Source of the DNA: Escherichia phage vB_EcoM_SP1 | DNA: 64,000 nt | Direction: 5' to 3' (one strand) | Sequence record: MT682709.1 | Shown here: positions 18,708-47,636 of the stretch, one piece after another | Layout: each line of letters opens with the position of its first letter | Position numbering within the stretch: position 1 is the stretch's first letter | Made by a program: the position numbers and the translations under genes | Notes under the pieces: generated by a model | Told to the model about the DNA's origin: nothing | Database searches by the model: none | What the model saw: the letters and a program-made list of their open reading frames with translations, nothing else

Positions 18708-19573
18708 TATTGAGCCACCCCGATTTTCTGCGTAGCGATAACTTTAACTGCTGCTCTCATACCGACAGTTGAAGAACTTATAGTCGCCGTTACATAATTT
18801 TCTTTAATACTAAATGCAATATTAGCGATTTCGTCTTCTTCGGTTTCATTCCCAACCCGCATGACAGCATATTCAGAAGAAATGACCGTTGAATTAACAG
18901 TATCTACAAGAATATTTATTTCTGCCGTTTTAATTTTTCTTCCATCTACCGATTGACAAGTAACTAGCAATTTAGCCATATTGTATTCAGTACGATGAAA
19001 TAATGGAATGTCAACTGATCCAGATGTAGAAATATTCCATGTACCTTCGGCAGGTGATTCCTTTTGGCCAAACATACTTTCAATAGAATAATTCCAAACT
19101 GACGTAGAATTATCAGATGAAATACAGCGCAAAGTTACTTTACTATATGGGCTAGTTACTACCAAATTACCCGAAACACCTTTAATTGAATCAATGGCTT
19201 GAATTGTTAAAGGATTAGTAACTGATATCGATCCGTTAGAATTAATGAATTCAACACAGTCGCCGAGTTCTCCTCTTTCAATGATAACTTTAACACCAAC
19301 AGTAGAGGTATCAATATCATGTCTAGTACCAACTTTCACCGGAGTTGCGTACTCTGTGATAGAATGCTTTTGATAATATCCAGTAGCATGGATAATTTGG
19401 CCGTCAGCGCCAGTACCATTTGCTACTGCCATTTTACGCTGATCGCCAAACGCGTTATAAATTGCATTAAAATCACTATTAATTTTATTACCACCGTCGA
19501 ATAAGATATCACCAGTAGAAGCGTTACCAATTTCGCCGGTATCAATCAATTTCTTTGGTTCTTGAATGAACAT
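18707..19573 (-). CDS. 9: baseplate wedge / long tail fibre attachment protein gp9
   Basis: 288 aa, T4 order. Confidence 0.85.
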   Translation of the reverse strand: MFIQEPKKLIDTGEIGNASTGDILFDGGNKINSDFNAIYNAFGDQRKMAVANGTGADGQIIHATGYYQKHSITEYATPVKVGTRHDIDTSTVGVKVIIERGELGDCVEFINSNGSISVTNPLTIQAIDSIKGVSGNLVVTSPYSKVTLRCISSDNSTSVWNYSIESMFGQKESPAEGTWNISTSGSVDIPLFHRTEYNMAKLLVTCQSVDGRKIKTAEINILVDTVNSTVISSEYAVMRVGNETEEDEIANIAFSIKENYVTATISSSTVGMRAAVKVIATQKIGVAQ

Positions 19574-19597
19574 AGCGGTTTCCTTATGAGTTTATAG

Positions 19598-19605
19598 TAT
19601 TTATA
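19598..19605 (-). promoter_or_regulatory. late promoter TATAAATA for gene 9
   Basis: tatttata on + strand upstream of the gp9 start. Confidence 0.6.
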
Positions 19606-44424: not shown

Positions 44425-44454
44425 GTTTACTTTTCCTCTTGACTGTGGTATAAT
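44425..44454 (+). promoter_or_regulatory. early promoter (GTTTAC ... TGgTATAAT) upstream of regB
   Basis: 18-bp spacing. Confidence 0.6.
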
Positions 44455-44481: not shown

Positions 44482-44943
44482 ATGACTATCAACACAGAAG
44501 TTTTTATCCGTCGAAATAAGCTCCGTCGTCACTTTGAGTCGGAGTTTCGTCAAATTAACAATGAGATTCGTGAGGCATCAAAAGCAGCAGGGGTCTCATC
44601 GTTTCATCTAAAATATTCTCAACATCTTCTTGATCGTGCAATTCAACGGGAGATTGATGAGACATATGTTTTTGAATTATTCCATAAAATAAAAGACCAT
44701 GTTTTAGAAGTTAATGAATTCCTAAGTATGCCTCCGCGTCCTGACATTAATGAGGATTTTATTGATGGGGTTGAATATCGTCCTGGGCGTTTAGAAATCA
44801 CCGATGGAAATCTTTGGCTTGGATTTACAGTTTGTAAACCTAACGAGAAGTTCAAAGACCCGTCACTTCAGTGCAGGATGGCAATTATCAACAGTCGTCG
44901 TTTACCGGGAAAGGCTTCTAAAGCAGTAATTAAAACTCAATGA
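44482..44943 (+). CDS. regB: site-specific endoribonuclease RegB
   Basis: 153 aa; matches recalled T4 RegB (MTINTEVFIRRNKLRRHFESEFRQINNE...). Confidence 0.8.
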   Translation: MTINTEVFIRRNKLRRHFESEFRQINNEIREASKAAGVSSFHLKYSQHLLDRAIQREIDETYVFELFHKIKDHVLEVNEFLSMPPRPDINEDFIDGVEYRPGRLEITDGNLWLGFTVCKPNEKFKDPSLQCRMAIINSRRLPGKASKAVIKTQ

Positions 44944-44950
44944 GGTAAGC

Positions 44951-45496
44951 ATGAGAAAAGCACTACTCGCTGGTCTATTGGCCATTTCAATGATGGCACA
45001 TAGCTCCGAGCATACTTTCAGTAATGTCCAACTCGATAACATGCGTTACGCGTATCAATTCGGGGAACAATTTTCTAAGGATGGAAAATATAAAACACAC
45101 AAAAATATCCACAAGAGCGGATTAGGTCATATAATGGCTGCTATTTTATGGCAAGAAAGCTCTGCCGGAGTTAATTTAAAATCTAAACCAAAGCATCATG
45201 CCTATGGAATGTTCCAAAATTATTTGCCGACAATGCGAGCAAGAGTTAAGGAACTTGGTTATAATATGACCGATGCTGAAATAAAAAGAATGTTGAATAA
45301 ACGGTCCAATTCAGCTTCCTGGGCGTACATTGAACTTTCTTATTGGTTAAATATACATAAGGGTGATATAAGAAAGGCAATATCCTCTTATAATTCGGGA
45401 TGGAATGTTAAAGCAGGTTCTAAATATGCTTCTGAAGTCCTAGAAAAGGCTAACTACCTTAAAAGTAATAAACTACTGGAAATAGTAAATGACTAA
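44951..45496 (+). CDS. secreted lytic transglycosylase-like protein
   Basis: Signal peptide; SLT-like motifs ILWQESSAG, HAYGMFQ, SSYNSGW. Confidence 0.55.
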   Translation: MRKALLAGLLAISMMAHSSEHTFSNVQLDNMRYAYQFGEQFSKDGKYKTHKNIHKSGLGHIMAAILWQESSAGVNLKSKPKHHAYGMFQNYLPTMRARVKELGYNMTDAEIKRMLNKRSNSASWAYIELSYWLNIHKGDIRKAISSYNSGWNVKAGSKYASEVLEKANYLKSNKLLEIVND

Positions 45497-45830
45497 AATT
45501 TTGGTTTTATGTATAGGATTAATTTCATTTTCTGCGTTAGCAAATACATCATATACTGAAATTAGAGAGTATGTAAACCGTACTGCCGCGGATTATTGCG
45601 GGAAAAATAAAGCATGCCAAGCTGAATTTGCGCAGAAATTAATATATGCATATAAAGACGGAGAAAGAGATAAATCAAGCAGATACAAAAATGATACTTT
45701 ATTAAAACGATATGCTAAAAAGTGGAATACCTTAGAATGTTCAGTTGCGGAGGAGAAAGATAAAGCCGCTTGTCATTCAATGGTTGACCGTTTGGTAGAT
45801 TCTTATAATCGAGGATTGAGTACTAGATGA
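45489..45830 (+). CDS. small secreted protein
   Basis: 113 aa with N-terminal signal peptide and four Cys. Confidence 0.5.
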   Translation: MTKILVLCIGLISFSALANTSYTEIREYVNRTAADYCGKNKACQAEFAQKLIYAYKDGERDKSSRYKNDTLLKRYAKKWNTLECSVAEEKDKAACHSMVDRLVDSYNRGLSTR

Positions 45831-46306
45831 TTGTAAAATATATCAAGGGCGATATTGTCGCCCTATTTCTTCAAGGTAATATTATTGCGCATGGGTGCAA
45901 CTGCTTTCATACTATGGGTTCAGGTGTAGCAGGTCAATTAGCAAGGGCCTATCCTAAAATTTTAGAAATAGATAAAACCACTACTGAGTACGGTTCTCGT
46001 GATAAATTAGGTGATATGTCTATTGTTTTTAAACATAATCCTACAGGATTTGGTATATGCTATAACCTGTATACACAATACGAACCAGGTCCTAATCTTG
46101 ATTATGGTGCTTTAGTAAACTGCATGATAGAATTAAATCTACAGGCAGAAACCCTTTTGTTTAAACCAGTAATTTACATTCCACGCATAGGTTGTGGTAT
46201 TGCTGGCGGTGATTGGGATAAGGTTTCTAAATTAATCGACATGTTTACTCCTGATATTGATTTAATAGTGGTGGATTATGAAAGCACATTACCCGCATCC
46301 GTTTGA
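45827..46306 (+). CDS. macro-domain-like protein
   Basis: HGCNCFHTMGSGVAGQ and IPRIGCGIAGGDW resemble macro-domain ADP-ribose-binding loops. Confidence 0.5.
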   Translation: MIVKYIKGDIVALFLQGNIIAHGCNCFHTMGSGVAGQLARAYPKILEIDKTTTEYGSRDKLGDMSIVFKHNPTGFGICYNLYTQYEPGPNLDYGALVNCMIELNLQAETLLFKPVIYIPRIGCGIAGGDWDKVSKLIDMFTPDIDLIVVDYESTLPASV

Positions 46307-46490
46307 TCCTAAAAACAAAGTGGAAATTATTCGTCAATGGGAACGCATTTGCCGTACTAAATGCCCAATTAATAGTCCACATGATGTAGATAAAGACTAT
46401 ATTGGAACATTCGTTGAATATACCTTTATTGATAAGAAAGGTCGTAAACAGCATGTAGAAGAATATTGCTTAAAGGTTACATGGTTATGA
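46278..46490 (+). CDS. hypothetical small protein
   Basis: 70 aa. Confidence 0.45.
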   Translation: MKAHYPHPFDPKNKVEIIRQWERICRTKCPINSPHDVDKDYIGTFVEYTFIDKKGRKQHVEEYCLKVTWL

Positions 46491-46693
46491 GCCAAATTAG
46501 CATTCTTAAAAATGCACATTGTGAAAAGTGTAAATGGCCAGTTGTTTTTGCTTTATGCAATGATGAAATGGCTTGTGATTTCGATTATTGGTGCTATTGC
46601 TCTAATAAAGGATGCATCAATCATAAAGGCGAAGGATTTTATTCAGGATTTTATCCTTATCCTGATTTCGTTAAAGAAGGTAAACCAAAATGA
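46487..46693 (+). CDS. Cys-rich small protein (putative zinc-binding)
   Basis: 68 aa from MSQISIL, 9 Cys including CEKC and CNDEMAC. Confidence 0.45.
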   Translation: MSQISILKNAHCEKCKWPVVFALCNDEMACDFDYWCYCSNKGCINHKGEGFYSGFYPYPDFVKEGKPK

Positions 46694-46863
46694 ATAGTTC
46701 TGAGTTACAATATGAAGTGTTACGTGAACTTGATAATTTAATTGAACTCGCTGTTAATAAAGGTTTTGCCATTGGAATTGGTCAAAAAGATACTGATCAT
46801 TTAACTATGGAAATATTTAAGCAAAAACGAATTATTTTAAAACTTCTGGAAATTAATATATGA
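46690..46863 (+). CDS. hypothetical small protein
   Basis: 57 aa, ATGA-coupled to neighbours; below the track's length cutoff. Confidence 0.35.
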   Translation: MNSSELQYEVLRELDNLIELAVNKGFAIGIGQKDTDHLTMEIFKQKRIILKLLEINI

Positions 46864-47045
46864 GTCTGAGCAAAGAACAAAAAGATAAATTGTTTGAGCT
46901 TATCCATGAACTTCTAGATGAGCATACAGAAGCAAACACCTTTTATGATGAATACGGCCCGCTATCTCCCGAACAGCAGGAAGAATTTGCTGATCGGTTT
47001 GATAAGAAAGAAAATGAATTAATAGCTTATGTGAATACGCTTTAA
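46860..47045 (+). CDS. hypothetical small acidic protein
   Basis: 61 aa. Confidence 0.45.
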   Translation: MSLSKEQKDKLFELIHELLDEHTEANTFYDEYGPLSPEQQEEFADRFDKKENELIAYVNTL

Positions 47046-47054
47046 GAAGGTGAT

Positions 47055-47636
47055 ATGGCGAGTTTAATTTTTACTTATGCAGCAATGAATGCTGGAAAAT
47101 CTGCTTCTCTTTTGACTGCTGCGCATAATTATAAAGAACGTGGAATGAGTGTATTAGTTCTTAAGCCTGCTATTGATACTCGCGATTCTGTCTGTGAAGT
47201 CGTTTCTCGCATTGGAATTAAGCAGGAAGCGAATATTATTACGGATGATATGGATATTTTTGAGTTCTATAAATGGGCTGAAGCACAAAAAGATATTCAT
47301 TGCGTATTTGTAGATGAAGCTCAGTTTTTAAAAACTGAACAGGTACATCAATTAAGCCGAATTGTCGATACATATAATGTTCCTGTTATGGCTTATGGTC
47401 TAAGGACTGATTTCGCTGGAAAATTATTTGAAGGTTCTAAAGAACTTTTGGCGATTGCAGATAAACTTATTGAACTAAAGGCAGTTTGTCATTGCGGTAA
47501 AAAAGCGATTATGACAGCTCGATTAATGGAAGATGGAACGCCAGTTAAAGAAGGTAATCAAATCTGTATTGGTGATGAAATTTATGTTTCTTTGTGTAGA
47601 AAACATTGGAATGAATTAACTAAAAAGCTCGGTTAG
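47055..47636 (+). CDS. tk: thymidine kinase
   Basis: 193 aa; P-loop MNAGKSASLL, FVDEAQF, C-terminal zinc-ribbon CHCGKK...C. Confidence 0.92.
   Translation: MASLIFTYAAMNAGKSASLLTAAHNYKERGMSVLVLKPAIDTRDSVCEVVSRIGIKQEANIITDDMDIFEFYKWAEAQKDIHCVFVDEAQFLKTEQVHQLSRIVDTYNVPVMAYGLRTDFAGKLFEGSKELLAIADKLIELKAVCHCGKKAIMTARLMEDGTPVKEGNQICIGDEIYVSLCRKHWNELTKKLG

Follow-up and report, generated by a model that had tools for sequence, protein, structure and literature searches.

Phage enzymes that erase ADP-ribosylation of DNA are a recently recognised form of counter-defence, in which AdfN acts against DarTG1 and AdfM against DarTG2. In phage T4, a transposon library grown on DarTG2-expressing E. coli returned tk.4 as the sole significant hit, a clean tk.4 knockout rendered T4 DarTG2-sensitive, and on plain E. 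coli K-12 the phage could do without the gene, which became important only with DarTG2, according to a November 2025 preprint (bioRxiv 10.1101/2025.11.20.689424). The authors describe Tk.4 as structurally resembling the M. tuberculosis DarG macrodomain, name the gene adfM (anti-DarT factor Macrodomain) and present AdfN (gene 30.3, a NADAR protein) as the companion factor against DarTG1. The name AdfM has also been given, independently, to gp104 of phage PhiKZ, a macrodomain that counters DarTG2: in vitro it strips DarT2-made thymidine-linked ADP-ribose (dT-ADPr) from DNA, and it relieves the toxicity of DarT2 (Cell Rep 2026, PMC13309987). Outside phages, SCO6735 of Streptomyces coelicolor removes thymidine-linked ADP-ribose from DNA and shields Streptomyces from DarT. 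This enzyme has Gln85 and is devoid of the catalytic residues of TARG1 and DarG; its Q85A mutant is inactive, N27S nearly abolishes activity and G128E weakens it, and a lysine-independent mechanism relying on an activated water molecule was proposed (PMC9411070).

Here we analysed 64,000 nucleotides of Escherichia phage vB_EcoM_SP1 (MT682709.1; hereafter the window) and describe its tk.4 gene (45827..46306, + strand), an ATG-started open reading frame (ORF) of 159 aa encoding a single macrodomain. The order regB-vs.1-vs-tk.4-tk.3 is common to SP1 and T4 (reference record NC_000866: regB-vs.1-vs-tk.4-tk.3-tk.2-tk.1-tk), and the ORF is therefore tk.4 of a T4-like phage (Tequatrovirus), orthologous by synteny to T4 tk.4. 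SP1 Tk.4 is likely to be a stand-alone enzyme of the ALC1/TARG1-like class that undoes DarT2-made thymidine ADP-ribosylation on phage DNA. As the gene and its likely role have already been described, our findings confirm rather than discover. The Gln-type active site and the allele replacement reported below are additions to the preprint, the available text of which does not mention the Gln-for-Lys difference between Tk.4 and DarG.

Fold, class and active site of SP1 Tk.4

The initial annotation, made from the letters alone, had read the ORF as a macro-domain-like protein on the basis of two motifs resembling ADP-ribose-binding loops. The ORF list and the translation contain both motifs as described: HGCNCFHTMGSGVAGQ corresponds to residues 22-37 (45890..45937, + strand) and IPRIGCGIAGGDW to residues 118-130 (46178..46216, + strand). 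Against Pfam Macro (PF01661), SP1 Tk.4 scored 33.1 bits (E=5.8e-8) over profile positions 2-117/118, above the gathering cut-off of 22 bits. A single-sequence search of PDB sequences returned BT1257 (E=1.6e-10), yeast Poa1p (1.5e-09) and SCO6735 (8.5e-08), with weaker matches to M. tuberculosis DarG (4.8e-05) and human TARG1 (~0.01). With a profile of 105 homologues, the same structures were matched at 6.5e-19 (BT1257), 3.3e-16 (TARG1), 5.6e-15 (SCO6735), 1.8e-14 (Poa1p) and 3.5e-11 (M. tuberculosis DarG), a resemblance well past chance.

Structure prediction with a Foldseek search, the check suggested along with the initial annotation, gave the same answer. The AlphaFold model obtained without an alignment (pLDDT 33.9) was discarded; the model used was built from a 104-sequence alignment and reached pLDDT 94 and pTM 0.89; its strands and helices alternate and form the three-layer alpha/beta/alpha macro fold. 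Foldseek matched it in the PDB to TARG1, Poa1p, BT1257 and DarG at E values of ~1e-10 to 1e-8 and TM scores of 0.67-0.82. The nearest neighbours in both sequence and structure belong to the ALC1/TARG1-like class (TARG1, DarG, Poa1p, SCO6735), not to MacroD, PARG or viral Mac1. Overall, SP1 Tk.4 is a genuine macrodomain of the ALC1/TARG1-like class, the two motifs aligning with the two ligand-binding loops of PDB macrodomains of this class, and the conservation of both loops predicts that it binds ADP-ribose.

We then compared the active-site residues. Across the 105 homologues, H22, G23, N25, C26, G33, A35, D49, N80, Y82, Q84, P119 and W130 are invariant, and T83, G122, G124, A126, G127 and G128 are at least 90% conserved. 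In loop 1, H22 and N25 correspond to H24 and N27 of SCO6735: the 'HGCN' of family member P0096 aligns to SCO6735 'HVCN', within 'HVCNDLGGWGKG'. The catalytic-strand motif N80-L-Y-T-Q84 (46064..46078, + strand) places Q84 at the position of DarG K80, TARG1 K84 and SCO6735 Q85. Note that these equivalences rest on gap-free alignments to TARG1, in which the family profile 'NlYtQ' falls on 'YLITK' with Q84 opposite the catalytic K84, and on alignments to SCO6735 and M. tuberculosis DarG via P0096, whose 'NAYTQ' aligns to 'NMIGQ' and 'NFPTK' (K80), respectively. A pairing of residues based on PhiKZ gp104 was set aside, its K78 being two residues off Q84 at low posterior in the HMM alignment and hhalign being unconfident in this strand.

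Loop 2, the diphosphate-binding loop, aligns with PRIGCGLAGGTW of SCO6735, PRIGCGLAGGKW of BT1257 and PRIGCGLDRLQW of TARG1; in SP1 Tk.4 the loop reads PRIGCGIAGGDW, near-identical to the SCO6735 loop and unlike that of TARG1. A PDB search with the C-terminal fragment likewise matched loop 2 to SCO6735, in an alignment that stops short of the Gln. SP1 Tk.4 thus has the SCO6735-type set of residues (Q84, N25, H22 and G122-C-G124, versus Q85, N27, H24 and G128), and by these alignments its active site is Gln-type and SCO6735-like, not DarG-type.

Divergence of the tk.4 allele from T4

SP1 Tk.4 shares 58% identity with T4 Tk.4 (NP_049723; 90/155 residues, no gaps, E=1e-70), whereas the vs.4, vs.3, regB, vs.1, vs, tk.3, tk, rI.1, rI and rI.-1 proteins are 93-100% identical to their T4 counterparts. 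In 30-nt windows, 26-30/30 nucleotides match T4 up to position 45863, 10-26/30 over 45864-46330 and 28-30/30 again from 46331; the diverged segment (45864..46330, ~61% nucleotide identity) covers almost exactly tk.4. This sharp drop inside a near-identical backbone indicates that the tk.4 allele was swapped by recombination with a distant allele and did not arise by rapid local divergence.

T2, T4 and T6 all bear the T4-type allele, with 153-155/155 residues identical among themselves. Residues H22, N25, N80, Y82, T83 and Q84 are kept in both alleles. The diphosphate loop reads GCGIAGGDW in SP1, which is the family consensus, versus GAGIGKGNW in T4, T2 and T6, and SP1 Tk.4 carries a 4-residue C-terminal extension overlapping tk.3 (159 versus 155 aa in T4). 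Within the T4-type allele, T6 Tk.4 (T6 19138-19605) differs from that of T4 and T2 by two adjacent loop-1 changes, G31K and S32A, the new lysine adjoining the position aligned with the DNA-positioning K34 of SCO6735.

The SP1 allele is a common natural allele of T-even AdfM. Megablast with SP1 tk.4 matched 564 phage records, nearly all from Tequatrovirus (Escherichia, Shigella and Yersinia phages), 4 of them 100% identical; by tblastn, the Tk.4 family is present in 2,858 phage records from many genera, with ~312 at 90% or more protein identity to the SP1 allele. The locus is a recombinational hot spot at which deeply diverged alleles sit in otherwise near-identical genomes, which offers a natural test of allele-dependent anti-defence specificity.

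Within codons 7-13 of tk.4, positions 45846-45864 contain a GC-rich hairpin with a perfectly paired 8-bp stem (AGGGCGAT-ATT-GTCGCCCT), behind which comes a T-rich run. The hairpin ends at 45864, precisely the point at which the similarity to T4 is lost. The RNA fold of this region is -17 kcal/mol (z=-2.0 versus shuffles). The hairpin may have arisen by chance from the conserved KGDIVAL codons; alternatively, it may function as an RNA element or mark a boundary of recombination.

Proposed role against DarT2 and alternative readings

In the mechanism that we propose, the tk.4 product would bind the ADP-ribose put by DarT2 on thymidine in single-stranded phage DNA and would hydrolyse the base-ribose (N-glycosidic) bond with SCO6735-like chemistry. 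N25 would hold Q84, which in turn would orient the distal ribose; catalysis would be initiated by a water molecule in place of a lysine, and the G-rich loop (residues 122-128) would grip the diphosphate. Removal of ADP-ribose would restore replication and let the phage escape the DarTG2 abortive defence. The suggestion in the initial annotation that a phage macrodomain could reverse ADP-ribosylation imposed by host defence toxins is supported by the published behaviour of the T4 orthologue on DarTG2 hosts; for the SP1 allele, we infer by analogy that the enzyme is a hydrolase, that thymidine-ADPr is its substrate and that the phenotype carries over.

Several points weigh against this reading. 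In the preprint, ADP-ribose removal by T4 Tk.4 is proposed, inferred rather than measured, and the DarTG2 requirement concerns the T4 allele only, to which the SP1 allele is just 58% identical. As the diphosphate loop differs between the two alleles, specificity could differ too, and with the other allele carried by T2, T4 and T6 the classical phages give no circumstantial evidence. The lysines K34 and K89, which position DNA in SCO6735, are not evidently conserved in SP1 Tk.4: K34 falls opposite S32, a position at which the family consensus has Ala, so that DNA contacts may differ, and the K89 region is a loop of differing length. Finally, enzymes of the SCO6735 class are promiscuous, acting also on uracil-linked ADP-ribose (U-ADPr) in RNA and on protein Glu/Asp-ADPr (PMC9411070 for protein).

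This promiscuity leaves room for a main substrate other than thymidine-ADPr DNA, either U-ADPr RNA or mono-ADP-ribosylation of protein Glu/Asp by another host toxin, and the SP1 allele could differ from T4 in this respect. TARG1, DarG and SCO6735 have all been published to reverse U-ADPr on RNA, SCO6735 efficiently, SCO6735 also de-modifies PARP1 E988Q (PMC9411070), and the two alleles have different diphosphate loops at 58% overall identity. However, DarTG2 sensitivity is the only phenotype that genetics has so far revealed for this gene family in T-even phages (same preprint). According to published work on U-ADPr reversal, moreover, no bacterial toxin that writes U-ADPr in defence is described, reversible RNA-base ADP-ribosylation is unreported in bacteria, and the adenine modification by CmdT is irreversible; we regard such a substrate as unlikely. 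The anti-DarT2 role could also be kept while being mainly non-catalytic, with Tk.4 binding and inhibiting DarT2 or binding the ADP-ribosylated DNA. The catalytically dead SCO6735 Q85A, DarG K80A and TARG1 K84A each act as DarT inhibitors in vitro, SCO6735 most strongly (PMC9411070), the T4 evidence is genetic only, and rapid allele turnover at tk.4 would be in keeping with co-evolution between Tk.4 and a partner protein. On the other hand, the invariance or near-invariance of H22, N25, Q84 and the G-rich loop in 105 diverged homologues argues for selection on catalysis, and Tk.4, which matches only positions 2-142/338 of the DarG profile, is without the C-terminal DarT-binding domain of DarG, which makes a mainly non-catalytic action distinctly unlikely in our view.

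Database labels point elsewhere: several close relatives are labelled in GenBank 'tk.4: macro domain-containing protein' or 'phosphatase', and the T4 tk.4 record notes 'contains A1pp phosphatase motif', as if Tk.4 were a Poa1p-like ADP-ribose-1''-phosphate (Appr1p) phosphatase acting on a small-molecule NAD/ADP-ribose metabolite. These labels derive from domain naming, not assays, and 'phosphatase' was rejected as functional evidence since it traces to the domain name. The preprint reports a tk.4 phenotype for DarTG2 specifically; the sequence resembles Poa1p strongly only at residues 3-79, the N-terminal half, and its diphosphate loop is like those of SCO6735 and BT1257 rather than that of Poa1p, so that a phosphatase seems very improbable. 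This reading further needs a source of Appr1p, and we know of no Appr1p-producing pathway in T4 infection. T4-like phages themselves encode three ADP-ribosyltransferases, for which a phage eraser would be a plausible partner, and Tk.4 might then erase the ADP-ribosylation that the phage's own Alt, ModA and ModB place on host proteins, tuning the infection programme. But Alt, ModA and ModB modify arginine, and to our knowledge macrodomains are not known to cleave Arg-ADPr. With a gene that is dispensable on plain E. coli K-12 and important only with DarTG2, again according to the preprint, self-erasure is scarcely conceivable.

The removal of thymidine-ADPr from phage DNA thus stays our preferred reading. 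A variant of it, which we hold to be rather unlikely, takes tk.4 as an exchangeable anti-defence cassette of T-even phages whose diverged alleles are not functionally equivalent, the SP1 allele being matched to other DarT2 variants or to another substrate (e.g. U-ADPr RNA) via lysine-independent, SCO6735-like chemistry. If true, this chemistry would be without prior study in any phage enzyme.

Genomic surroundings and comparison with described macrodomains

The tk.4 gene and all its neighbours lie on one strand. The tk.4 ATG shares the ATGA at 45827-45830 with the stop of vs, and tk.3 begins at 46278, so that it has 29 nt in common with the 3' end of tk.4. Upstream are the RegB endoribonuclease gene (44482-44943; Pfam REGB_T4, E=1.2e-68), vs.1 (44951-45496), which encodes an SLT lytic-transglycosylase domain protein (Pfam E=7.2e-5), and vs (45489-45830), a 113-aa protein annotated as valyl-tRNA synthetase modifier. 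Downstream are tk.3 (46278-46490), encoding a DUF7202 protein, orf75 (46466-46693), encoding a phage zinc-binding protein (Pfam Phage_zn_bind PF23895, E=1.2e-28), and the thymidine kinase gene tk (47055-47636).

The nearest strong promoter match upstream of tk.4 is a sigma-70-like site before regB (TTTACT-17-TATAAT with TG; 44426..44454, + strand), found by a consensus scan only, and the promoter/terminator scan counted no more promoter-like sites in the region than expected from shuffled sequence. It is possible that 44426..44454 starts a regB-vs.1-vs-tk.4 transcription unit. With the promoter scan uninformative, we assume from T4 knowledge that tk.4 probably belongs to an early transcription unit starting near regB.

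The vs.1 and vs proteins have N-termini that by eye resemble signal peptides (MRKALLAGLLAISMMAHS... and MTKILVLCIGLISFSALA...); an export signal on Vs would be odd, as Vs is thought to act on the cytoplasmic synthetase. In the HIDEN-SEQ preprint, no gene is depleted more strongly than vs in minimal medium. The tk.3-tk interval (46466-47045) is also unlike T4 and forms a second variable island next to tk.4. It contains orf75 and orf57 (46690-46863), which are without T4 counterpart in this interval and are identical at 69/70 residues to T6 RB32ORF111c and at 56/57 residues to T6 RB32ORF110c, respectively, followed by orf61 (46860-47045), just 54% identical to T4 tk.2; no tk.1 homologue was found in the SP1 interval by comparison with T4. 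Some public labels resemble name-propagation errors: the 61-aa T4 mobD.4 is called 'molybdopterin-guanine dinucleotide biosynthesis protein MobD', and errors of this kind are likely for the many small T2 (AP018813) ORFs labelled tail sheath, capsid or terminase and for vs, labelled 'valyl-tRNA synthetase' in many T4-like records.

Among described systems, T4 Tk.4/AdfM is the orthologue, with the same locus between vs and tk.3, the same H22, N25, N80, Y82, T83 and Q84 and the same family, PHROG 335 (E=1.6e-71 for SP1 Tk.4); SP1 Tk.4 belongs to this orthologue group by its position in the Tequatrovirus backbone and its full-length homology. The PHROG 335 profile is 422 positions long, of which SP1 Tk.4 covers only 54-207, and longer phage relatives occur among the BFVD matches (Acinetobacter phage 133 tk.4, 245 aa; Erwinia and Escherichia phage proteins, 260 aa). 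From this partial coverage and these relatives of 245-260 aa, some members of the Tk.4 family therefore bear additional domains.

Compared with DarG (T. aquaticus, 5M31/5M3E; M. tuberculosis, 5M3I), SP1 Tk.4 has Gln84 in place of the catalytic Lys80. The NCBIfam DarG equivalog NF048014 gave 27.8 bits against a cut-off of 250, over positions 2-142/338, which are the macro part only, and the PADLOC DarG model gave 27.7 bits (positions 3-144/329), versus 36 for T4 Tk.4 and 132.9 for PhiKZ gp104. No darT lies adjacent to SP1 tk.4, its neighbours being vs upstream and tk.3/DUF7202 downstream. SP1 Tk.4 is not a DarG family member, and the idea of a whole captured DarG antitoxin was rejected: the C-terminal domain, the lysine and darT are missing and the score is far under the cut-off. 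PhiKZ gp104 is a stand-alone phage macrodomain, as is SP1 Tk.4, but it is closely related to DarG and has its catalytic lysine in an FPTK motif (N23/K78), whereas SP1 Tk.4 is Gln-type; gp104 can be aligned only remotely with the Tk.4 family (hhalign probability 95.6%, 22% identity). Given the DarG-like, Lys-type site of gp104 and the Gln-type site and low DarG score of Tk.4, the two phage AdfM proteins are separate recruitments from different branches of one macro class. The use of one name by two groups for gp104 and T4 Tk.4 is likely to cause annotation confusion.

BT1257 of Bacteroides thetaiotaomicron (PDB 2AFC/2FG1), a structural-genomics macrodomain, is 26-29% identical to SP1 Tk.4, and its PDB entries say 'conserved hypothetical protein' and name no function. 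TARG1/OARD1 shares the class and the loops but has a K84/D125 dyad versus Q84/A126. Poa1p, an Appr1p phosphatase, also shares the class and the loops, its H23 aligning with H22 of SP1 Tk.4; note that the best-aligned Poa1p entry, 6LFU, is a point mutant in loop 2, which blurs the comparison at that residue. A bacterial Gln-type relative of the Tk.4 family (Pelagimonas) is stand-alone, with no DarT-like neighbour, a single locus that supports no general claim.

SCO6735 (PDB 5E3B) is like SP1 Tk.4 in having Gln at the position of the catalytic lysine together with the loop-1 His and Asn, in its PRIGCGxAGGxW diphosphate loop, near-identical in the phage protein, and in standing alone without a DarT/G partner. 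It is a distant relative in which the mobile loop following the Gln is longer, and it is encoded by a bacterial chromosomal gene with a RecA-NDp promoter, whereas SP1 tk.4 is a phage gene. As T-even AdfM carries this Gln and not the DarG lysine, mutational and mechanistic work on the phage enzyme should therefore be modelled on SCO6735 (Q85, N27), not on DarG K80.
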